A stretch of 56,644 bases of DNA, counting the filler, from Sphacelaria rigidula (lineage: Eukaryota), in the NCBI GenBank assembly GCA_964200075.2. It is 3 parts of 3 records of this genome, joined end to end, with 100 filler letters (N's around TTAATTAATTAA, not from the genome) between each part and the next. Parts side by side here need not be neighbours in the genome. Positions count along the whole stretch, not along the records: positions 1 to 18,817 come from CAXNAA020000784.1; 2 more parts are not named here. The stretch is one strand, 5' to 3'. Below, one piece after another: positions 6,891 through 54,625 of the stretch (position 1 is its first letter; every line of letters begins with the position of its first letter). Below the pieces are notes generated by a model. That model ran no database searches. It was given only the letters and a program-made list of their open reading frames with translations, and had not been told where the DNA came from. A program made the translations under genes and the position numbers.

Positions 6891-7969
6891 GCTAGTTGAT
6901 TGAAAGAGAAAGAACTCTCAGTTTGATATTTCAAGTTGAGCACAGGACTGGCGGCTTGTCATATTCTCTCTCTTGTGGGGTGCGACTTGCTCTGCTAGTG
7001 CATACTAAGACAGAGGCTTAAATGAACGAAACATGAGGTATTTACCCTACCCCCTGATCGGGGGGGGCAGGTCATTAATGCTCGGAATGCTTTATTGTCA
7101 TGGAAAAAGGATGTAACCTCAACGTGGTTCCCCTCGTGTCATTGTTTGCGCCCTTGGTGGATAGCTCCAAAGGGTATAAACGAGCCATGCATGTGTAAAC
7201 CAAATGGGGAGTTATGTGAAGTTGTTTCGATTTTAAGAGATCAAACCCAACCATGTACTTCTAGTTTACATTTCGACTTTGAATATGTGGGTGGTTGTTC
7301 CGGGGTGTACTGCTGAACATATCATTGTTTGATTAATATTACCCGCAGCGATGGATCACAGGACTGCATGAAGCCTGCAACAGTTGCTCGTCAACAGCTG
7401 TTGCTGGTGCCCGCCTACCAATTTCTATGTAGCTACTCATGAGTGTGATGGTCAACCCAGATCCACAACGATTGAGCGGCTATGAGTGAACCTGCATGCT
7501 AAAGTGTTTGCATGAGGCCACCAGACGGATGCCTCGTCTGTTTCCGTGGACCGTCTATACTTGTGCACGCTCTGACAATCAATTCGAAGATAACCGTCTA
7601 CATGTGCGTGCTCCGACAATCAATTCGAAGATGACCGTCTACGTGTGCGCGCTATGACCGTCCCCGGGAGGGCCTACATTCTTCTGGTCTTGAGAGTCCA
7701 TGGGTTCCACACATTCTTTTACCGAGATCCACACCGGAAATAATCTGATGAAAGTTGTTGGCTTGTAATGAACGACTCGTGTGTTTATCGTGGAGACTAT
7801 GCAAGTTGCCAAAATACAAGCCGGAACATCGAATGGGTGAACGAAAAAGTTGTGTGAACCAAATGTATGTATATATATATATATATATGCTTTCACCAGA
7901 CAGCGAATAAGCAGGATTTGATTGCACACAGGAAAATGGGCGAAGACAAAGGCTCAAGATGTCAAGACC

Positions 7970-8290
7970 ATGCTTGTCCGGACAGGTTAACAGGAAATCA
8001 GGATTCCCCTTCCTTGTCCGAACAGGTTGACAGAGAACCAAGAGCTCCCATGCTTGTCCGAACAGGTTGACAGGGAGCCAGGATTTTCCAATGCGCGTTC
8101 AAACAGGTTGACAGGAACTCAGGATTTCCCATCCGTGTCCGAACAGGTTGACAGAGGACCAAGAGTTCCCTTGCTTGTCCGAACAGGTTGACAGGGAATC
8201 AGAATTTCCCATCCGTGTCCGAACAGGTTGATAGGGAGCAAGGATTTGCCCATGCGTGTTCGAAGAAATTGACATGGAGCCAGAATTCCC
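7970..8290 (+). repeat. Tandem array of about 8 x 40 bp with core gtccgaacaggttgacag
   Basis: Core recurs near 7976, 8016, 8056, 8097, 8137, 8177, 8217 and 8258. A homologous array of about 6 units lies on the minus strand at 17270-17500. Confidence 0.9.
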
Positions 8291-8691
8291 GTTGCAGTCC
8301 ATGAAATCATACTTGACTGTCTCCGACACGTGATAACCCGGCCAAATACACGCGTGAACCTGTATTGTCCGGTCTTATTGCTGTTCCCTTCATTCTCCTT
8401 CCCCTTTATTTTGTTCGCTATTGTTACAGTGGTGAAGCGCTGCTATCCATGTTACTGCTTCCATCGTTTCTCACGCTGTTGATGACTAAGAACGTTTCCG
8501 CCAGACACCGCCCTCGTGACTCTTGGATCATGAAGATTGTAATACACTGCAATAAATTGTCCTTAATTCTTTCAATCGGTGTTTTTACATTCATGTGGCA
8601 CGTGCGTGTAGGTTTAACGTGTCGAGTATCGCACAGCTAGCCCCAGATTGGTAAAACATGAGTGGAAACCCCTTCAACCCTCGAGCCCAAC

Positions 8692-9132
8692 AACACGGGA
8701 TCTTACAAATTGGGGATGGATCTTTTATTGGGGATGAGAAACCCGGAAAATCAAATCTTTGTATCCACAACAAAGCTTCGAATTATGGTTTATTTCTTCA
8801 CCTACTAGTAGCTATCGACAACTACTGAACGCCATACAAATTTGGATTTTGATCACCGAAATTTTGGGGTCCTAGGTGAAAAGCCAAGTTTGGGGAATTC
8901 CGGGTGTCCGAACGGACGCCAAAATGGTTCCAGTATTGGTTTTTGAACTAGGGCCCCAAGATTTTGATAGTCGAAATCCAAATTTCTATGGCGTGTAGCA
9001 GTTGTCAATAGCAATCAGTAGGTGAAAACTGGAACCATATTTCGAAGATTTGGGGTGGAAACGAAGATTTTAATTCTCCGGGTTTCTCATCCCCAATAAA
9101 AAATCCATCCCCAATTTGTAAGATCTCGTGTT
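8692..9132. mobile_element. Foldback MITE (441 bp, TIRs about 190 bp, 4-bp TSD caac) inserted at the start of gag
   Basis: aacacgggatcttacaaattggggatgga... / ...tccatccccaatttgtaagatctcgtgtt, with caac at 8688-8691 and 9133-9136. Confidence 0.9.
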
Positions 9133-10561
9133 CAACCCTTCTACCCGGCGGAATACGTCCAACAGTCTCCCGTACGAGCACCTTCCCTTGCGGCAGCAGG
9201 TTGACGCACCTCCCGCGCAGCTGTAGGTTACCGCACTTCCTCAGTGGCATCAGTCTTTTATGCGTCCGCAACTGCAGCAATGTTTCTGCGCCACGACAAT
9301 AAGAGCAGTATTTTTGCGCCGTTGCAATAAAACGCCGCTGAGGTTCCGCAGATTAATTTGCTTAGTGATCCTGACCAACGATTTGCACAACTGGTCTTTT
9401 CTCCGTCTGTTTTCAGCGGATACTTCCAGTATCTGGGTCTCCGTTGACGTTGTTCATCCCAGGCCAGGCGCAACCAGCAGTGTACATATTCCATGCTCAG
9501 CTGCCGCCGCCGCTGCTGCCGCCTCTGTAGCACCGATCTAGGGACTAGGTTTCACCTAACCCGGTAGGTACGCATGCAAACTCATTGTATGGATCATTTC
9601 ACCTGTCCGGGGCTACCCCTGCTTCGAACGCCATTTTAGCCAAAGCGAGTAGGAACGATGCACAGCAGCTGTGGGGGAAAATTGAAGTTTGGTACCACAG
9701 CAAGGGTAGCCACCGCTCACCAGTAGGGGTGTTACTGGGCACCGGGGCAGGGGGGGGAGCTATGCATCGAAACAGTGGTGGAGGTTGTTGGTAACGTGGA
9801 GTAATATAGCGAATAAGTTGCAACGACTGGGAGCAGGAATTTTGAGGTCCGCTAACCCTAGTAACAGTAAGATACCTCCGATGAAGATTCTATGGTCAGC
9901 GGTAATTCCTACTCGTTTCCACACAGAGGATGAGTAAAGTATGTATGGGTCCGGGTAGTCCATGGATTATCATATGGATTTATTCCGGGAGCGAGTTTCT
10001 TCAGGAGAAACAAGACCACGTTATCTTTCGAAGGGAGATCGAGATTTCGGCCTTCGCCGGAGGCGCCGTGAGTACGGTTCGTGTCTCACAGCCCCCAAAA
10101 CTCGGATCTGTTACCTCACCAGCCAAGGAAATTCGGCAACTTTGGACCTCTTTGGTGCCGTCACGCGAAGCGCGCTCGGTGACGGCTCGACGGAGGGGTT
10201 GTCTGGTCGGAGCGAACTGGCAGCATCGAATGAGGTGTGGAAAAGCCTTGGAGTGGCGCGGGAGGACGATGCTACGCTGCAGTGGCTTCTGCATCCAACG
10301 GAGGACGTAAGCTCAGAAGGCTTCGCTAGCAAGCTAGTCCCGGGCTACGTGCGATCGACGCTAGCATGGGCAGCCGCCTGCGTCACGGTTCGGAAGAAGA
10401 ACGGGCGGTAGTTCACGACTATATCAAAATTATCGTGGACTGAACCAACTTCTGGAGTCATGCAGCAGCAGTTTGAGGGATATGCAGACCATGTGTAGTG
10501 GGCTAGCAGAATCCAAGTATTTTACGAGTGTTGATTTAGCGAATTGGGATTTCCAGTTGGA

Positions 10562-11401
10562 GGTGGAGGAAGTGTTTTGGCAGCCAAAGTGTTCGTGGAG
10601 ATGATACGCTGATGCGGACAGGAAGGCGTTGGGTTGTGTTGGAGTAAACCAGATTGGACAGGGGGTCAGGCTGGTACGTACGAGTCCGGGGCGCGGTTCT
10701 TTCCACGACCTTGTGGAAGAAGTGCATTAAGAAGTGTTGGTACGGGATACTAGTCGGGTTGCACCAATCGAACGGGCCGAGCCGGAGTCCGCGTTAGCCA
10801 GCGTCGCCAAAGAGTTTGTCGAGTCATTCCTCTCATCAACCTCTGTGATAACGCTGATCTTGGAGAGTATTGCTGTGATGGTGCGCTCTCCTGGTAGGAA
10901 CGAGCTTGTTGCCCCGTGTTAAGCGGAGCTGGGTGTCTCACTGAGCACGCCTCAGTCTCAGCCGTGCAGGTGGGCGCATCTTATCGGAAGAGACGGACCT
11001 ATGTGGTCGGCTTGAAAGCTGACCGTCGGAGGGAAGGACAACTGCAAGCGTGGAAGCAGCGAGTGGAAGCGTACACCATCGTCTGCCCCACTTTGGGTTA
11101 GCGATTAGGGCGAACAGGTATTTACTTTTCTGGTGCCGACAGGACAGGGCAAGGCGATTCACACTTCCGAGAATCCGATGCTCAGATTCTCTTAGCTGAC
11201 GAACGGGAAACCAAGGCGCGAGGAATCCATACCCCATGGGGCGGACACAGGTGGATAGGACGAAGCAGTCGAGCTGGAAAGAGACGGTTTGGTGAAAGTT
11301 GCGACTACTCTCAACTGTTACGAGACACCACCCCGATAAATAACGACGCCATGCCATAGATTGTGGCTAATTTTGTTCACCCGTAGATGATGAAGGCGGT
11401 T
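10562..11401 (+). pseudogene. Degenerate C5 cytosine DNA-methyltransferase-like domain within Gypsy pol
   Basis: Manual translation across frameshifts gives motifs in canonical order: I-III GGGSVLAAKVFVEMI../ADADRKALGCVGVN; IV position EVLVRDTSR (10731-10757, no PC); VI TLILESIAVM (ENV position 10863-10871); VII-VIII LSGAGC..ASVSAVQVGASYRKRRTYVVGL (to about 11013); IX ELERDGLVKVAT; X VANFVHP*MMKAV (11363-11401). Confidence 0.72.
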
Positions 11402-12110
11402 CCATCATGTGGAAGCGGAAGGTTCGTTCAGCCTGACTCATAACCAGGGTGATGATGAGGATTTGAGCACGCTCGCTACGATGTGGCCTCGTGGCGAAGC
11501 AGAGTTACCGTAGGCTTGGGGAGCCACTGTACCTCGTTCGTCAGTTCAAGAGGCAGAGCGGAAGTCAGACCAAGACCCTGGTGGGGGGAGGCTTCAACTG
11601 AGGAGCCACGGATACCAGGTAAAGGTAGCTCTCACACTGTACTCGAGCAGGCGAGAGCGATTCTGATAAACAAGCCCCGACTAGCTTTGCTGCAAGAGCG
11701 GGACTCCCGGCTTGGTCCCATCAGGGATAGGTTAATGTAGGAGAATAAGGATGAAGGAACAGGCAAGAGGCAGGAAGCGTACGTTCCAAAATGATGATGA
11801 TCTTCTATGGTATGCCTCACCTAGGGCGCCAGGTAAGTTAGCTATTCCACGCAGTCTAGTGCCTGGCCTGCTCACGTTGGTGCACACTACGCATGGGCAC
11901 GCCGGAGGGATGAAAACGACTGTAGCGGTCAACGCACGCTATAAGTGACCCGGTCTTTTCGCCGACACTCGCAAATACGTGCTATCTTGTGGATGCCGCC
12001 GACGCAAACGTACTAATAGCCACACCACAACGATGCGATCCGCCCGCTTCTTGCAGTTCTGGGAGATGATGTAGATGGACATACCGGACATGAAGCAGAT
12101 TTTTACTTCT

Positions 12111-12338
12111 GACACTCTCTACGATAGTAACCCCCCCAAAAAAGTGCATGGTTTGGGGGGGAAAAATCTTCACGTCAATCGAAATGGGAAAAGCCGAGCA
12201 CAACGAGAAGCTCGGAATTCCCACTCTTGGGTTCGTTCTAGCCAATGTCGCCAATATGAGGCTCTTCATACAGCCTGATCCCGAACATCAGGCGCGGTAT
12301 GGCCATTTGTTTGGTGACATTTTTAGCTGGTTAGTGTC
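12111..12338. mobile_element. GACACT-family MITE inserted in the integrase (right TIR partly deleted)
   Basis: gacactctctacgatag... to ...tagtgtc, TSD ttct/tcct. Homologous throughout to 26601-26855. Removal restores KQIFTSVNRCLLVV. Confidence 0.85.
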
Positions 12339-13529
12339 TCCTGTTAATAGGTGCTTGTTGGTTGTTATAGGTCGAGCGACCAAGTTCTTTTTGCTCTTCC
12401 ACTAGCAGCCAAGGTTACTGAGCACGTAGTTAAGGGTCTGCTGAAACTGTTCTTGACGCTCGAAACGCCCTATTTCCTTTGAAGCGACGCTGGGGGGGAG
12501 TTCACTTCGGAAGAAGTAAATCATGTGTGCCATGTGGATGAAGGTGAGATTGGATCATGGTCCCGCAGATCACCCTCGCGATCAGGGCGCGGTGGAAAGA
12601 TACGGAGAGTGGTTGCATGGTGTTTTAGCCTAGCTATGTAAGCAGTGGCTGGAATGGTGGGACGGGTACGTGGATCCTGCTATATGAATTCATCATACTA
12701 CTTCCGACCAGTCACTGCCGCATAACCCAACGCGATTAATGCTGCTTTTGAGCGCGAGCTTCGCACCCAAGTCGACTCTGTGTCACCTGAAGCAGAATTT
12801 CTACCGTTGAATAACACGGTAGAGCAACAGCGACAAAATTGAAGGACGTTCACGAGCTGTTAACCCAACGCCACCGGCGTAGGGAAGAGGTAAGATTAGC
12901 TACAAGTGCGGAGATGATTCGTCAGTCGGCAGCATCGCGAGCTAAGGTGTAAGATATGATGCTAGTCAAGGAATCTGACAGCTCCCTTCTGAACGAAAAT
13001 GTACTGGCCGAATGAGTACACGACTGGTGGACTGGGCCTGGGACGGTGCAGCAGGTGGTGATACCAGGCCTCAATCTTGAGTTCAAAATGCAGGTGCGTA
13101 AAGTAGAAGAGCGAACGGTGTTTGCGGCCAACGCTTAGAAATTTCATGTGCGCCCAGAACAGCTGCAGCACTCATTTCCAGACGATGTTTCTTAGCTAGC
13201 TTAGGGGGGCATATTTAGGGGTGGCTGAGGTCATCACGTTCACACCTCTACTATATACTCTAACGGATAGGAAAGCAGTGCTGGGCCCAGGATCATCGTG
13301 AGTGTGGGAACATCAACGGTTGTTTCACGACTGAGCTGAGCCACACCGGCTTTCAGAGGAGAGGCTTTGGACAGTTTCGCTGGGTTACAGTTGGACGTGT
13401 TTCATGCCTTGTGGGAATTATATCACCCGCAGACCAGGCCACGTCCACCTGATACACCATCCCGAGCAGAAAGGGACTCAATTGCACGGCAGATTCCCCG
13501 AGATACCAAGATCTGTAAACGGTTGATGG

Positions 13530-13995
13530 ACAGCCCGGAGCGATTAACAGGATCAAGAACTTCTCCGGACGGGATGACATCGTTTTTATACGGTGTTTGA
13601 ATTTCCCACGTGATCTAACGCGGCAGAGCGGTCAACAAAGATTCAGGACTTCTCCGGACTGGATGGGATCGTTTCTGTACGGTGTTGAAATTTCCTACGT
13701 GGTCTAACCCGGCGGAGCGGTCAACGAGATCAAGAACTTCTCCGGACGGGATGGGATCATTTCTGTACGGTGTTACAATTTTCCACGTGGTGTAACCCGG
13801 CAGAGACGTCAATAAGAGCAAGGACTTCTCCGGACTGGATGGGATCGTTTTTGTACGGTGTTTAAATTTCCTACGTGGTCTAACCCGGCAAGGAGGTCTA
13901 CAAAAGCGGGAGTTGCCCAGACTGCTCGAGATCCTTCTGCACCGTGTTTAAATTCCCTACGTGGTCTAACCCGGCAGAACGGTTACCAAGATCGA
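13530..13995 (+). repeat. Tandem array of about 88-bp units (5-6 copies) in the Gypsy 3' UTR
   Basis: acttctccgga recurs near 13559, 13648, 13736 and 13823. The unit contains cggtgtt.aaatttcctacgtggtctaacccggc. Confidence 0.9.
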
Positions 13996-15387: not shown

Positions 15388-18300
15388 TGTCGGGGAATAA
15401 AAATAGAATTCAGCGACTCCCAGCGAACACGTGATATATTTATTCATAAATGCACTGACTGTATATATTCGCTCACCGTTATCGGACAGCAAAGAGCAGA
15501 ATGATCACAGCAAGCGGCATCCAGCACCAGAGATGATCAGTTCAGCGCAGAGCAGCTTATACTGAATGTCCGAGCGTACTGAGCACAGCTTCAGGGGTGA
15601 GTCAGTTATTCTTCTCGGTTGGTGGTTTTGATAACTCTAATTCAGTTCACGAGCTTCGGTCCAGATTCTTGCAGGGTACTAATAAACAGGGGCTCAGCAG
15701 AAATCCGTGTTGAGAACATCCGAACCTAAGCTGGATACGAAGAGACATGTTTATGTAACCGTCGTAAACAAATGCAACTATCGTCCCCCCTGACTGCGGC
15801 ACTTGCCGGTTCCCGCAGTCAGCCCTCCAGCCACTATTTGTCGGAATGACTGGCCCATCATCTTACTGCCCTGCCACCACTACGCTGTGATCCATAACAC
15901 CACCCCTCAGGCCTAGGGTTGAAAATCCCTCGGTCTGAACGTGGTTCGACGATGGATCACTGCGTCACCATCTTCATCTTTCCCGAGCAGTCGACGTCAT
16001 CTTGAGCAAGCTGCCGATCTTACTGACCGCTCTGCCGGGTTCGACCACGGAGGGAATTAAAACACCCAGCTGAAACGATCCAATCATAATCTTGAACAGT
16101 CGCTAATCTTGCTGACCGCTTTGCCGGGTTGGACCACGTCGGGGGAATTTGCACACCGTGCAAAATCGATCCCATCGTAGTCTTGAAGATTTGCCAATCG
16201 TGATGACCGTTCTACCGGATTAGACTACGTAGGGAATCTAAACACCGTGCAAAACCAGTCCTATCATAGTCTTAAACAGTCCTCGGTACTGAGGATCCCT
16301 ATGCCGGGATAGAAGACGTAAATAATTTAAATACCGCGCAAAATCGATCTCATCATAGTCTTGAACGGGTCGTTCATCGTGATGATCTTTATGCCGGGCT
16401 AGATCACGTAGGGTATCTAGACACGGTGCAAAATCAATCTTAGCACTCCTTCGCGAGAAAACGGCTCGGTTAAGTTGTTATCTTCTCCGCATCTTCCATC
16501 CTTCACCGTCCCCTGACCTAGGGGATGATCTGACAGACCATGACCTGATATAATCCTCCTCGACTGGCATACAAGATCGATCACCTTCCGAAGTAAACTC
16601 CCCCCCAGCGTCATTCCATGGCGGTTGCACCGAGCTCAGGATGAACTGCCAACGGAGATCTAGCGAAGGAACGGCCGGTTGCGAAGCACGTGGCCGTAAA
16701 TAGTAGGCAAATTTACCTGCGGCGTTCATAACCCGGGATGGCATGCGCTCGAAGCAAAATGCATACCTAACTGGATCTAGTTCACCGGTTGAGCTTGTTG
16801 CTGCAGGCTCACGGGAGCATGAACAGAAACTACTGCTGTTCAGGAGATGCACAAACCTGCATGCGGTTGTCCTGTGTTGGAAGTGGAAGACTGCTATCCC
16901 GCCGGAGGAAGGGCTGAACATCGTATATCCACCACAATAGTAGTCAGGCAAAAAGCAGTTGTGCACCGGACAAATATCCAGAGAAAGCACGGCAAAGGAT
17001 AACGACGGAGTAGACACACGAATCGCACCATACAACAAAGAGGACGGCAAACGTACTCACGCGTAGGGACATAAGGGAACAGGACACGACCAAACAAGGC
17101 GCAATCACACGCGGGGAACGAAGGGGACGGCGTACGACCGGACAAGATACACCCACGCGTGGGGAACGAAGTCAACGGCAATATGACCGGACAAAATGGG
17201 TCCACGCGTATGCACTTGGCCAGGGTATCATGTGTCGGGGACAGCCGTGTGTGATTTTCTGAACTCCGACCCTTGTCAACCTGTTCAAACACGCGTGAGA
17301 AATTCCGGCCCCCTGTCAACCTGTTCGGACACTCATGGGAAATCCTGGCCCTCTGTCAGTCTGTTCGGACACGCATGGGAAAGTCCGGCTCTCTGTCAAC
17401 CTCTTCAGTCACGTATGGGAAACCCTGGCCCCCCGTCAACCTGTTCGCACACTCATGGAAAAATCCTGACTCCCTGTCAGCCTGTTCGGATACGCATGGT
17501 CTTGACATCTTGAGCTATCGTCCTCGCCCATCTTCCTGTATGCGATGATATCCTACCTGTTTGCTGTATGGTGCAAGCGTATTTCCGGTCCATAAAACTT
17601 TCTCGTTCATCCATCCAATGTCCGGCTTGTATGCTAGTAACTTGTGTAGTGCCCACGATAACTACAAGAGTCGCTCATTACAAGTCAACAACCCTCGTCG
17701 GTTCCTTTCCGGTGTAAATCTCGGCAAAAGAATGTGTGGAATCTATGGACTCTCAAGACCAGAATAATGTAGCCCTATCCCGGGGACGGTCGTAGCACGC
17801 ACAGGTAGACGGTCAACTTCGAGTTGATTGTCGGAGCCCGCATAAATAGACGGTCAACAGGAGCTGAAGGAGCATCTGTCCGGCGGCCTCGTGCAAACCT
17901 CTTGGCATACAGTTTCACTCGTAGCCACTCAATCGTTGTGTATCTGAGTTAATCATCACATTCATGAGTAGCTACATAGGAATTGGTAGACGGCCACCCG
18001 TAAATTATCAACGACCTACCGTTGCCGGCATCAAGCAGTCCAGTGGTCGCCGATCCACCGCGGCAGGTCATAGTAATAATCATATCAGAGTACGCTCAGC
18101 AGTGCACCTCGAAACGATCACCGATGTATTGATGGTCATGAAATAAACTAGAAGTACACGGTTGGGTCTGGTTTTTTGGAAAAGGGAGCAAACATCACAT
18201 AGGTCCAAAGTTTGCACGCATGCATGGCTCGCTCATACCCTTTGGAGCTATCCACCCAAGGCGTAAACGATCGAACAGGGGGAACCCGTGTAGGCCACAT

Positions 18301-24892: not shown

Positions 24893-27800
24893 TTACGCAA
24901 CCATCTGAGCGATAGCCTCCGCACACTCCTTGTACTTGCTGGCCGGCACAAGGCCCACGACGTACCGTTGTCCACTCCCCCCGCCATCCCGTGACGCCGA
25001 GCTGGCCCCGGCGCCGGCAGTTGTGGAACCTGTCCCCTCACTTGAGGCTGCCGTTCCCATGGCGAAGAAGAATTCAGCCTCCTGGATCAAGGGCACGATC
25101 AAAACACGAGAATTAGGTGGACACAAACGAGGGTACGCATAAATCATCATACGGTTTGACCGCTGTTTACGGATAGGTGAGAGTTGAATTTCGGGTTTCA
25201 GGGAAATCTCCCGTACAGTTTGGTTCTCATTGGTACGTCCATCATGTGACCACGGCTCGATCCCCGGGGAGTCAGGAAAAATGCGACAATCAATCACTCA
25301 ATCAAATACTCTCGGGAATACGTTCATGGTTGGTAAAATAATTTGTTTTCTTTCTCCTCAGATGGTTTCCTAATGCAGTTCCAACACCGCAATCCTCACA
25401 AATCATACCAAAATTGATGACTGAAGCATGCAAGTGTACGAAATATGTTGGTCGAGTTGATTTGGAGGGGGGGGTGAATGACGCGACACGGGCGGGGGCG
25501 AAAGTAGTCATGTCTATCGTGCTTTGGGGGGTGTACTCATAATATTGCATGCCATAGTCATATGATCATCGACCTCGTATCCCTGCAAAGCCGGGACAGA
25601 GCACGCTGGGTGTTCGCCGGACCAGGCTCAGTCAATCACCAAGCGCGAGGCGCCATGGCGTGCTCCACGAGTCGCATGAAGAATGAGCTGCATTTTGCCA
25701 AGATCGTTCAATCCGAAGCGTACTGACAGCCTAAAATGAGTTGCTTCATGTTGAGGACCGACGCCCGGATGGGTAGGGTGACTCGTGTACAGAGTCGAGC
25801 TAGGGGACGTTGTAGGAGGTTTGGTCGGTGAGGGACATTTTGTTTTACTTCCCAAGTCCGACACTACCTGGGTGGGGGGGCACTCCCACCTTGGTACCTA
25901 TCCATACAATGCTAGACATGCCTACCCTCGGATGGGCATGTCTGACGGGTGGAGCGACTCGAAGCGCTGCACGAAACTAGAAATAGCGAAGTGCATGGTT
26001 CAAGGTTCCTTCCTGTCCTCTGGGGACCATAAAAGAAAAAAGTTGCTTCATGTTCCGGTATCGCCACTTCCGGAGACAGCCACGGCTTATACACTGCCTC
26101 ATGGGTATCTCATCATTTGAACACTACGTAGTACGATCGATCATTTCCTTTACGCGGAGTTGAGGTTCTCATACCCCGCACATTACGATCTAGCTCGACC
26201 ACCATGATGGTTACCGCAAAAATAAAAACAAGCACGCACAAAAATCGGTCACCCGGTTGCCTAGCTTACGCAGTGAGTGGCGTGTTTTACAACGCCATTG
26301 CCAACCGACGCCAACGCCATAGGGGGTTCGTCCTGACAAAGCCGGGACGGAGCATGTCGGGTTCTCGCGGGACAAGGCGCTCTATCGCGCTTTTTGGGGA
26401 TAGCATCTCTTATCTTGGCCTGTAAAATCATGCAGCGCTACCTCTCAATATGGCAGATGTTTTCGAAAACACTGAATTATGAGCACGGGAAAAGTCGTTG
26501 CTCTCCGCATATACATGCGCGAATAGCGTTCGCAGGCGAACACGTAGAGTACATCGGACACGGTAGTGGAGGAATAGCGCCTTCGGGGACATTTTCTATC
26601 GACACTCATTACGATAACCCCCCTCCAAAATGCCTGATTTGCGCAGGCAACATCTTGACGTGAATCGAAATCGAAAAAGCCGAGCACAACGAGCAGCTGG
26701 GAATTCCCGCGCTTGGGTTGGTTCTCGCCGTTGTCGCCCATATGAAGCGCTTCATGCACAACCTGAACCCAAACATCAGGCGCTGTATAACCATTTTTGT
26801 CGTGACATTTTTCGGTTGATTTTTTTTTGGGGGGGGGGCTATCGTAGATAGTGTTTATCCCGCTGCGTTGCTGTTGCTACCGCAGCAGGAACTCCCCTTC
26901 TGCAGCTAGCTGCGATTCTTGGGGACTAGATTGCCGCACAATTGCAAACACGCGATTCACCCACACCCTGTACGTACAGCAAACACATTGAGAATGCGAG
27001 AGGTCTGGCAGGCATCACCAAAGATTTCATGAGATCTGTCATAGTTGTGGACTTTGACGTCACTTTGTGCGCTGTCCCTGTTTGGCTGTGCTTTGCTGCT
27101 CGACAAGCTCAACCCCTAGACAGCATCGCATCGGAACAGTTTCACAGGTTCGCAGTCCAGGGACATCCGGGGTTTTTCACAGTGGGCGATACTGTGGGAA
27201 TATGCCTGGCGATTGACGACTGTGCGAAAATGAACGAAGGGCTTATATGGCCGTGCATGAAGTTTCACCAGTGACAGTTTTTGATTGACTTGCCTTATAC
27301 TAAAAGACGTAACGAGGCGTTCACACTGAACTTCGAGCCCAAGTATGTACGTGTGCATTCATTATAAATGCCAGTTGCTGTTCAAAGGGTATGTTCTGCC
27401 CGACGGGGGATCGCACTCGGGAATTAAGGCATTTTTTCTCGTCATAATGGTGACGGATAATATTTGCCCACAACCTCAGCGTACAGGTACATCCACTCCA
27501 CTATAGAGTAATCAACTCAAGGCAATTTACCAAACCTAACAGGCTTCGTGCTCCACGACCACGATACTCGTGAACTGGGGCGAGCATTCGAGAGAAAAGA
27601 TACATATCAGAGCACTATTTTTCGAAATACCACAACGCAATGGGAAAAAAGCAAAATCTGGGGATAGGGAACCATATGGCTTCCCTGGATTATGAAAGAC
27701 GAACCTTTTCGAAACCGGTACAGGATTTCAGCTGGGCGAGTTTCTCGTGTTTCCCTTCATCTTTCTCCAAACCAGACTCTTCTTGAGCGAGTGTTTCCAT

Positions 27801-52410: not shown

Positions 52411-54625
52411 GTCCTCCCTTCTATTCTGGGAGCCGGTCCACACTTTTCGGTATATGTGGGCGCACCAGCCGGGGCCACACAGGAGGAAGGTCGACACAGG
52501 AGCTTTTTTTTTTTTAATTTGTTTTTAGTACCCCACCTTCCTCCTGCGGTGCTTGCCTTCATTTTTTTATCGCGGAAGGGGTTCAGCAATCCCTTTCCCT
52601 CGTCGACCGTCAAGTCGAATTTTGCATTCGTAGGACAGCTCATGAGCTAGCTCATCTGTTGGCGGTAGCTCACTTGTAGTCAAACATGCACATGTGAGCT
52701 ATGTCCGATAGCTCAACACAAGGTGAAGGTGCGCTGATGAGCTACGAGTTGGTAGCTCACCCAGGGCGAATATGAGCTGATGAACTACAGGTTGGCGGCT
52801 CACCTATCGCAAACGTGCGTAGCTCATACAGCTCCCGTAGCTCACTCAGTGCAAACATGTGCAGCTCGTGTAGCTCTCACAGCTCACCCCGAGAAAACAT
52901 GCGCGGATGAGCTACGTCCGGTAGCTCACCCAAGGCAAACATGCGTAGCTCACCTAGCACTTGTAGCTCACTCTGGAAATACATGTGTAGCTCACGCACT
53001 TCTTACAGCTTACCCAGGAAAAACACATGCGGATGACCTACGCTCGATAGCTCACCCAAGGCAAACATGTGCTCATGTGAGTATGTGTAATCCCGTCTTC
53101 CACATCGATCGCCTGTTGCGAAGGATCCAGATGCACGGCGTCATTTCCGACTGAAGCGCGGCTAGAGCTGCTGCTCCCCGCGGTCGCCATGCAAGGCGAA
53201 TTGTGTGTGTGGTTGTGTGTGTATGTGGTGGCTATGATGCGGATGATTTCTGATGCAGCCATGTTGATCGTTGATGTTCACAAAAAGCAAATCCATCGCT
53301 ACACAAAACGGAACAGGTGTGTGCACGCACATCTAACCGTTGTCACGTACGCACAATATCAACGTGCATGAGAATCGGAACAGAAAGACTCCAAGATCGG
53401 CGTAGCTCCCGCCGCTCTTTAGCTCAACCAGTGCAATCATGCGTAGCTCCTGTAGCTCTCATAGCACATCCAAGGGCAAACATGCGTAGCTCATGCAGTT
53501 CTCATAGCTCATCTTGTGTATCCACAACATAGTCGCTCTCCACCGTTGGGCATTGTGTCAGGAAAAATCCCAGATCGCTCCGAGAATTGAACCCACGACT
53601 CAATTGTCAGAAGGATTCGAGATTACCAACTGAGCCACCAGGGCGACCGGCTGAGAGTGCTTACCCAATATTTGGGTAGAGTATTGAAGTCATGCCCAAA
53701 TGATACTCCATACCCCTGTATTGCTTAGGTTACTCGCCCAATATTTGAGTAGAGTATGTGAGGTCGTACCCAAACTACCCAAAATATGGGTAGAGTATTT
53801 GAGGCCGTACCCGATCTACCCAAACCTTGGGTAGAGTAAATACCCGAGTATTTTACCCGATTATTCAAAAGTGCATACGCTACTCGACCTGCCCTTGACT
53901 TTTTCGATCGAAAGCCTGCGGAGGGAAGGTACGAAGGGGCACTTGACTCCTGTCTTGCAGACCACCACGCCCAATACCACCCGTTCACAGAGCCATCATG
54001 CAAACCTCAGACCTCAGAACTCACTCTCAACTACCACCGCAACCCTGCAGCATAGAGCACGAGTTGGGTACAGGGATAAATACACTGCAGTAGTTGGGTA
54101 TGATATGTTTATTCTTGTCGGCGAAAAGTTGAACATATTTTTCATGGTAGTGATCGGGCACGGAACTGCGTGGTGAGGTGGACGACTGACTTGCGTACAC
54201 TCATGGACAGTACAGGTAGTACAAAGCTGCAAGCTGTTCAAGTCCTTTTCACGTCGCCTTGTAAGCAGGGAGTACAGATAGTCCTGTGCTGTCTGCACTG
54301 CACGTTGCCCCCTTCTCTTTCACATCCTACAGCACGGAACACGCACACACACACTCAGGCACACCGTATGAATACAGCGCAGACAGTACAGTACTGTACT
54401 GTAGACAAGCGAACAAGTGCCACTCCACGAATTTCACTGTCGTTTTAATGATCGAAAAATAATGTGCGAAGACACGGCCTTACCCAATACTTGGTTAGAG
54501 TAGTTTAGATGATACCCGACATATCCAAATTTTGGGAAGAGTATTGAGGTCATACCCAAGTGGTAACTCCATAACAAGGTATTGTTGAGAGTGCTTACCC
54601 AATATTTGGGTAGAGTATTTGAGGT
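52150..54625. repeat. Degenerate tandem array (tacccaa.atttgggtagagtatt motif) split by later insertions
   Basis: Units at about 52150-52350, 53653-53870 and 54480-54625. Confidence 0.7.
52352..53652 (-). mobile_element. tRNA-derived SINE with (CA)n tail and an ~880-bp internal gtagctca repeat block
   Basis: The minus strand starts agccggtcgccctggtggctcagttggtaa...ggttcaattctc. (TG)n at 52352-52408. Flanked by gctgacagtg/gctgagagtg (TSD-like). Block about 52635-53513 is absent from the 22261 copy. Confidence 0.82.

Follow-up and report, generated by a model that had tools for sequence, protein, structure and literature searches.

A high-copy, decayed Gypsy derivative of Sphacelaria rigidula with a probable relic of a C5 methyltransferase core

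We analysed a stretch of 56,644 nucleotides from Sphacelaria rigidula (assembly GCA_964200075.2; hereafter the window), which carries on its plus strand, from 10377 to 13543, the remains of a Ty3/Gypsy retrotransposon. In this element a stump of the reverse transcriptase (RT) of about 65 codons adjoins a module of about 290 codons, and the module is followed by the integrase. The original prediction took the sequence between RT and integrase for a captured C5 cytosine DNA methyltransferase. Our reading is narrower, namely that the first half of this segment is probably the inactive relic of a C5 methyltransferase core once borne by a transposon, lying in a decayed, non-autonomous derivative of a brown-algal Gypsy element. 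What stands of the capture proposal is its application to the first ~155 codons of the module, by way of their likeness to an intact Gypsy Pol protein, P0143; the proposed motif X, the expected direct matches to methyltransferases and the suggested self-methylation are not supported.

P0143 is a Gypsy Pol of 1,943 amino acids (aa) in one open frame, from a metagenome contig of 7,945 bp. Pfam places RVT_1 at residues 590-748, RT_RNaseH at 826-954, Integrase_H2C2 at 1740-1791 and rve at 1813-1905, and the 785 residues between RT_RNaseH and Integrase_H2C2 carry no Pfam domain. Within them, residues 1101-1427 match two phage families labelled 'DNA methyltransferase' in PHROGs (phrog_116, E 4.3e-6, and phrog_363, E 6.1e-6), and the top Pfam match of the region is PF00145, with an E value of 0.038 over profile positions 4-79. 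The region was also compared with a Dcm-type profile, made of Escherichia coli Dcm and 80 loci of 46-84% identity; this is a narrow comparator, and among the matches listed of the word-indexed search with E. coli Dcm (at least 120, 74-100% identity) there were close orthologues only. In this comparison the best hhalign alignment (P 0.012) runs collinearly over 205 columns and brings together motifs I, IV (Pro-Cys), VI and VIII of the two sides; a second alignment lies at motif X, with a P value of 0.11. In a home-made profile test of the same pair none of 300 shuffles reached the score (z 5.3). P0143 keeps the Pro-Cys (APCSP), the Glu of motif VI and the R-x-R block, and about 300 further residues lie between the methyltransferase-like domain and the integrase. 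Regarding other carriers, phmmer found no second one among the 150 proteins listed of the 164 described below, the PDB sequences gave no matches for the region at E values up to 10, and metagenome scans found no relative of it. Judged on its sequence, P0143 may represent a Gypsy lineage carrying a methyltransferase, possibly an undescribed one, and this intact Pol may be a more useful object than the relic in the window.

The relatives of the window element were collected with HMMER: of 1.84 billion proteins searched with P0001, a read-through frame of the window, 164 matched at E values up to 1e-3 (150 of them listed). Short open reading frames (ORFs) of other copies tile the segment, namely P0049, P0056, P0152, P0133, P0018 and P0094, and furthermore P0090, P0021, P0025, P0026, P0071 and P0088. 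The family alignment has 18 staggered rows, 12 ORFs and six window pieces, which were placed through local pairwise alignments with three natural ORFs that overlap one another. P0143 and this family have the same order of parts, with RT followed by the methyltransferase-like domain and then by the integrase. Nevertheless, P0143 has a single open frame, a complete RT and RNase H and the Pro-Cys, unlike the family, and with ~29-36% identity to the window in RT and integrase it is no close relative.

Columns 16-173 of the family, which correspond to 10562-11023 of the window (~155 codons), pair with residues 1110-1272 of P0143 with only four gaps. When the family was aligned to P0143 1081-1440, the score was reached by 4 of 2,000 column shuffles with permissive gap costs and by one of 3,000 with BLAST-like gap costs (z 5.7). 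The signal is replicated in split halves of columns 11-180, where the window rows alone (its own three pieces) gave 0 of 2,000 shuffles and the ORFs from outside the window gave 6 of 2,000. With all columns, shuffling the target gave 0 of 2,000 and shuffling blocks of 10 gave one of 2,000, and reversed profiles dropped to the null mean. We also scanned 73 segments of 360 aa from 18 long proteins, and the P0143 segment ranked second under both gap settings; with BLAST-like gaps the first rank was taken by a true local homologue in the Pol P0138, to which we return below.

All the motif strings quoted in the original prediction do occur at the positions it gave, in two reading frames of the plus strand. 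GGGSVLAAK (10562-10588), the motif VIII-like VSAVQVGASYRKRRTYVVG (10955-11011), VANFVHP (11363-11383) and MMKAV (11387-11401) are in the frame of 9902, and ADADRKAL (10608-10631) and LILESI (10854-10871) are in the frame of 9900. Its assignments of motifs I, VI and VIII agree with the profile alignment, in which the same columns pair with motifs I, VI and VIII of P0143; the P0143 motifs are in turn those that hhalign pairs with motifs I, IV, VI and VIII of Dcm. In C5 methyltransferases motif I is a glycine-rich loop for S-adenosylmethionine, with the pattern FxGxGG. Here the window has GGGGSVLAAK and P0143 has GVGGAHLAAK, with 7 of 11 positions identical and a pairwise score reached by 31 of 1,000 shuffles, and the P0143 block is paired with AGIGG of Dcm by hhalign. 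Motif IV is where the family departs from an enzyme: at the column of the Cys of APCSP none of the six family rows has Cys (five have Val and one a gap), and the preceding Pro is found in one of the six. The Glu of motif VI (ENV) is present in all three rows that cover it, the window and P0143 both reading LES and Dcm LEN, and the two rows that cover motif VIII (QxRxR) have YRKRR, where P0143 has KRAR and Dcm has HRER; these are matches at the level of the pattern only.

The second part of the module gives a different picture. Motif X, claimed at 11363-11401, finds no counterpart in the C-terminal part of P0143 (z 0.07). Family columns 176-310 (about 11024-11440 of the window) are marginal against the C part of the Dcm-type profile, with 28 of 2,000 shuffles, and the alignment lies after the GN block of Dcm. 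For columns 251-306 there is a homologous stretch in P0138, a Pol of Nemacystus, at residues 527-582 (z 5.2-6.4, 0 of 500 shuffles). Besides this segment of 56 residues P0138 has an entire RT and the beginning of RNase H, but no counterpart of the methyltransferase-like N part. We also considered that the C part might be a duplicated pre-integrase motif and rejected it, with z values from -0.8 to 1.2 against six pre-integrase segments.

A more ordinary explanation would be that the segment is simply the decayed rest of the RT (motifs B to E and the thumb) together with RNase H, for which it has the right length. The distance of ~370 codons from the RT block to the integrase does suit an ordinary Gypsy Pol. 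However, in tblastn with 17 long Gypsy Pols the stump was matched by 10 of them and the integrase by 14, whereas none gave a high-scoring segment pair in 10641-11584; 11 of the 12 segment pairs over the stump end at 10565-10571 and one at 10640. Another decayed Gypsy in this window still shows RNase H, at 67-544, with E values down to 1e-17. Against a profile of 10 sequences covering RT, RNase H and the pre-integrase region the family gave a best hhalign P of 0.13, and the profile test gave z values of -0.16 and -0.07. A point for decayed RT comes from the scan mentioned above, whose first rank under permissive gap costs was the RT-RNaseH segment of P0151 (residues 361-720, z 3.66), but this alignment consists of 25 small chained blocks and falls to z 0.87 with BLAST-like gaps. 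Moreover, in P0138 the segment homologous to columns 251-306 exists alongside a complete RT and the first part of RNase H. Thus, tblastn, hhalign and the profile test alike find the RT core and RNase H absent from 10572-11584, and decayed RT plus RNase H was rejected as an identity for the segment on these tests; we regard this explanation as already largely refuted and very improbable. The ~280 codons of additional sequence that had been noted between RT and integrase occupy, in this family, the place of the missing RT catalytic core and RNase H and are not an addition to a complete RT-RNase H.

Is the segment a property of this copy or of a family? We mapped four public runs, each labelled either 'organism A' or 'algae metagenome', onto 9500-13500, at a likeness of at least 80% and in 30 bins. 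Each run contributed from 7,125 to 12,239 contig pieces, all 30 bins were covered in all four runs, and the depth over the disputed segment was similar to that of the flanking bins. In three of the four runs contigs of other copies span the junction of RT and module (10236-10690), with 66-68 differences per ~456 bases. The segment is therefore shared by the whole family, and an insertion private to this copy is ruled out. Where copies differ, the changes are mostly transitions, which go both ways. Inside the window there is no second copy of 10562-11401.

The Ty3/Gypsy origin and the brown-algal host are both borne out, the origin by the Integrase_H2C2 match and the tblastn of long Gypsy Pols, the host by related proteins from Sphacelaria rigidula, Ectocarpus and Nemacystus. 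P0132 is the Ectocarpus relative and P0138 the one of Nemacystus decipiens, while P0030, from S. rigidula, shares the reading across the junction of RT and module and matches RVT_1 with an E value of 0.018 at profile positions 18-88. The RT stump and the integrase stand in the order proper to Ty3/Gypsy, but neither the RT core nor RNase H lies between them; by its domain content the element is an incomplete one, a deletion derivative of a Gypsy element. Lacking both, the family is also non-autonomous, and on copy number and coding content it is a high-copy Ty3/Gypsy-derived repeat of brown algae. In word-indexed protein searches residues 155-914 of P0001 had no match and P0018 retrieved itself alone, and metagenome scans found no relative of P0025.

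As for the copy in the window, 10547-11440 holds at least five frame changes and four in-frame stops relative to the open frames of other copies, and therefore this copy is dead, a sequence fossil with no present function. At ~10556-10571 the first codons of the module overlap the end of the RT stump in another frame, as expected of a deletion junction, and we infer such a deletion.

Along the plus strand the element can be followed piece by piece. The N-terminal stump of the Ty3/Gypsy RT, seen by tblastn with 10 of the 17 long Pols, runs from 10377 to DFQLEVEE, whose end at 10571 agrees with the RT-like block of the original prediction. The N part of the module, delimited by the profile alignment to P0143, lies at 10562-11023 and resembles a C5 methyltransferase core (motif I-, IV-, VI- and VIII-like blocks) devoid of the catalytic Cys; it passes from the frame of 9902 (10562-10609) to that of 9900 (10605-10919) and back to that of 9902 (10898-11023). 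The C part, conserved in the family, partly homologous to P0138 and including the claimed motif X, is at 11024-11440. A linker and pre-integrase region follows at 11441-11735, recognised by tblastn of the family ORFs P0006 and P0088 and of P0138 residues 723-779. The remnant of the N-terminal zinc-binding domain of the integrase extends over 11736-12108, as delimited by Pfam and by tblastn of 14 long Pols; its Integrase_H2C2 match (E 9.9e-7 at 11844-12008), the only domain that Pfam recognises there, confirms that an integrase lies downstream of the module. After an interruption at 12109-12340, remnants of the integrase core and C-terminal region occupy 12346-13543 (tblastn of P0007 216-622, P0132 1108-1394 and P0138 859-1108). 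No pair of direct repeats of at least 80 nt brackets 9500-13600 as flanking long terminal repeats (LTRs), although decayed LTRs could escape this search. In the window as a whole, 10 of the 16 ORFs of at least 150 aa have no Pfam match.

Several other repeats were seen. The interruption of the integrase is a secondary insertion of a short abundant repeat: in all four runs other Gypsy copies skip its 232 bases, joining 12108 to 12341, and its summed contig depth is ~1e6 compared with ~1e4 in the flanks, about 100-fold. A second copy of this repeat, at 26601-26860, has inverted ends rich in runs of C and G and resembles a miniature inverted-repeat element. Just past the C-terminal region of the integrase, 13536-13990 contains about five tandem units of 88 bases, and a similar array in inverted orientation lies ~2.5 kb downstream of it, at 16009-16440. 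Short tandem arrays occur also at 7968-8289 and 52798-53049, with spacings of 40/81 and 42 bases respectively. The decayed Gypsy mentioned above is a second, unrelated remnant at 67-2347, found by tblastn with the long Pols, with RNase H at 67-544 and integrase at 1659-2347.

Several results weigh against a methyltransferase ancestry and have to be set beside the likeness to P0143. Direct tests for C5 METHYLTRANSFERASE all fail, both for the window and for the family ORFs tested. PF00145 has no match in three read-through frames (E up to 10), nine ORF pieces or 10 family ORFs (E up to 1); PHROGs and NCBIfam return nothing for six family ORFs, and the PDB sequences return no matches for P0001 and P0003 at E values up to 10. 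Compared with the Dcm-type profile, the family reaches a best hhalign P of 0.11, in a pairing that places its motif VIII-like block on motif VIII of Dcm; the family hidden Markov model scores at best -0.7 bits against 81 Dcm-type proteins, and in the home-made test 31 of 300 and 129 of 1,000 shuffles reach the score. The significant profile match that the original prediction had named as its check is thus not found, which counts against its claim. The structure models were too poor to assign a fold: AlphaFold2 with seven family rows gave P0018 a predicted local distance difference test score (pLDDT) of 50.1 and a predicted template modelling score of 0.22, and the P0143 region alone reached a pLDDT of 38.3. 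The link between the family and P0143 has its own weak points. Its significant test is a home-made profile aligner, and P0143 was chosen among 17 long proteins after its motif I had been noticed. One of five gap settings shows no signal (66 of 300 shuffles), the P0151 segment outranks P0143 under permissive gaps, HMMER scores the link at -3.2 bits, and hhalign gives a P of 0.18, with 9 of 170 column shuffles reaching the score. Pairwise Smith-Waterman alignment is below 0.05 for one of 16 pieces, the motif I piece with its 31 of 1,000 shuffles.

These results would suit a module without any methyltransferase in its ancestry, a lineage-specific accessory or spacer domain found in the Gypsy elements of brown algae; the motif strings and the likeness to P0143 would then be due to chance or shared composition. 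Every direct profile test is negative, standard tools give weak signals for the link to P0143, and P0138, which has a segment homologous to the C part, lacks a counterpart of the N part. Furthermore, motif spotting is cheap, RT and RNase H motifs being equally easy to find by eye in the same residues. Nevertheless, we hold this spacer-like origin unlikely, though with a real share of the probability. The near-gapless alignment of the family with P0143 over 158 columns survives four types of null and is replicated in split halves, the reversed profile drops to the null mean, and the P0143 domain sits at the same place in Pol. An independent look-up of features in the ESM Atlas points to the same Pfam family: for the family ORF P0018, 30 of 30 matches were clusters of PF00145, the top one scoring 0.93 with 154 of 256 shared features and a recognition value of 3152. 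This look-up has to be read with the tool's own figures, by which shuffled proteins score 0.9 in 4-10 of 100 cases, a further point on the adverse side, as is the calpain returned at 0.90 for a second fragment, P0025 residues 1-100. Calpain was rejected as an identity for that fragment and taken as noise.

At the other extreme, the family might encode, or have encoded until recently, an active enzyme that methylates its own cDNA, as the original prediction suggested when it spoke of shielding the cDNA. There are precedents for such elements in Symbiodinium and Klebsormidium, as described in PMC5890265, and P0143 does keep the Pro-Cys, the motif VI Glu and the R-x-R block. In the family, however, no row of six has the catalytic Cys and one has the preceding Pro, the module is read in another frame than the RT stump, there is no RT core and no RNase H, and the copy in the window has its four stops and at least five frame changes. 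The ratio of observed to expected CpG is 0.96 in the module, 0.98 in the whole window and 0.83-1.04 across the parts of the element; there is no depletion of CpG and therefore no footprint of CpG methylation. Self-methylation is thus unsupported, given the missing Cys, the stops, the lost RT core and RNase H and the CpG ratio near 1, and we consider an active enzyme extremely improbable.

Returning to the relic of a methyltransferase core, its history was probably as follows. Some Gypsy elements have a methyltransferase domain of this kind between RNase H and integrase, P0143 being an intact natural example. In the ancestor of the family the RT stump and that domain were probably brought together by an internal deletion, so that the first ~155 codons of the module would most likely descend from a C5 methyltransferase core reaching from motif I to motif VIII. 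The domain was probably inactive already when the family amplified, because the alignment has Val or a gap at the position of the catalytic Cys in the six family rows, and the amplification would have relied on enzymes of other elements. A bolder version, which we find doubtful and put forward only tentatively, is that in an old Gypsy lineage of stramenopiles a C5 methyltransferase had its place between RNase H and integrase, that this domain survives intact in P0143-like elements, and that brown algae keep thousands of its inactivated relics. If this were true, the relics would bear witness to a period in which DNA methylation was still carried out by the ancestors of brown algae or by their transposons.

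Such a record would bear on what is reported of the hosts. According to the preprint bioRxiv 10.1101/2024.02.19.579948, DNMT1 was lost after Discosporangiales diverged, and most brown algae have no DNMT1 and little or no 5-methylcytosine. A high-copy relic, if real, would be a datable trace of that lost epigenetic system. A methyltransferase-bearing retrotransposon of brown algae is reported neither in the main accounts of that preprint and of PMC12477816 nor in the literature that our searches returned, although the supplements may list some. In PMC12477816, a survey of transposable elements of Ectocarpus, Gypsy elements are described with chromo, Tudor and NADAR domains and with no C5 methyltransferase, and 'DNMT' occurs 0 times in the main text; where PMC12344493 mentions DNMT3 members embedded in retrotransposons, it does so for streptophytes and dinoflagellates only. 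The value of the present family is evolutionary, and it gives no sign of present activity.

Regarding known systems, de Mendoza et al. (2018, PMC5890265) describe LINE (long interspersed nuclear element) and DIRS elements with methyltransferases in the dinoflagellate Symbiodinium and the Gypsy element KnitGypsy-Dnmt3 in the charophyte Klebsormidium nitens. KnitGypsy-Dnmt3 has a C5 methyltransferase domain within the Pol of an LTR element of the Gypsy type, as the window family probably once had. However, its domain is described there as related to Dnmt3, with the key residues kept and under purifying selection (Ka/Ks, the ratio of non-synonymous to synonymous substitution rates, below 0.2), whereas that of the window family is recognisable solely by way of P0143, has no catalytic Cys, and belongs to a decayed, non-autonomous element of a stramenopile. 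SymbioLINE-Dnmt and SymbioDIRS-Dnmt3 would share with it a methyltransferase encoded by a retrotransposon, but by the same account they are a LINE and a DIRS element with a tyrosine recombinase, and active families in a heavily CG-methylated host, whereas the present relic is of the Gypsy type and its window shows no CpG depletion. Compared with methyltransferase-bearing retrotransposons in general, the catalytic residues are not conserved here and the module is out of frame with the RT stump. Nearer to the host, the Tudor-bearing Gypsy-10_Ec32 of Ectocarpus (as presented in PMC12477816) is a brown-algal Gypsy with an accessory domain related to chromatin, as the window family would be, and the best integrase relatives of the window, P0007 and P0127, weakly match a Tudor model (PTM_DIR17_Tudor, E 8e-4 and 2e-4 respectively). 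If the relic is what we take it to be, it would be a further case of an accessory chromatin domain in the Gypsy elements of stramenopiles.

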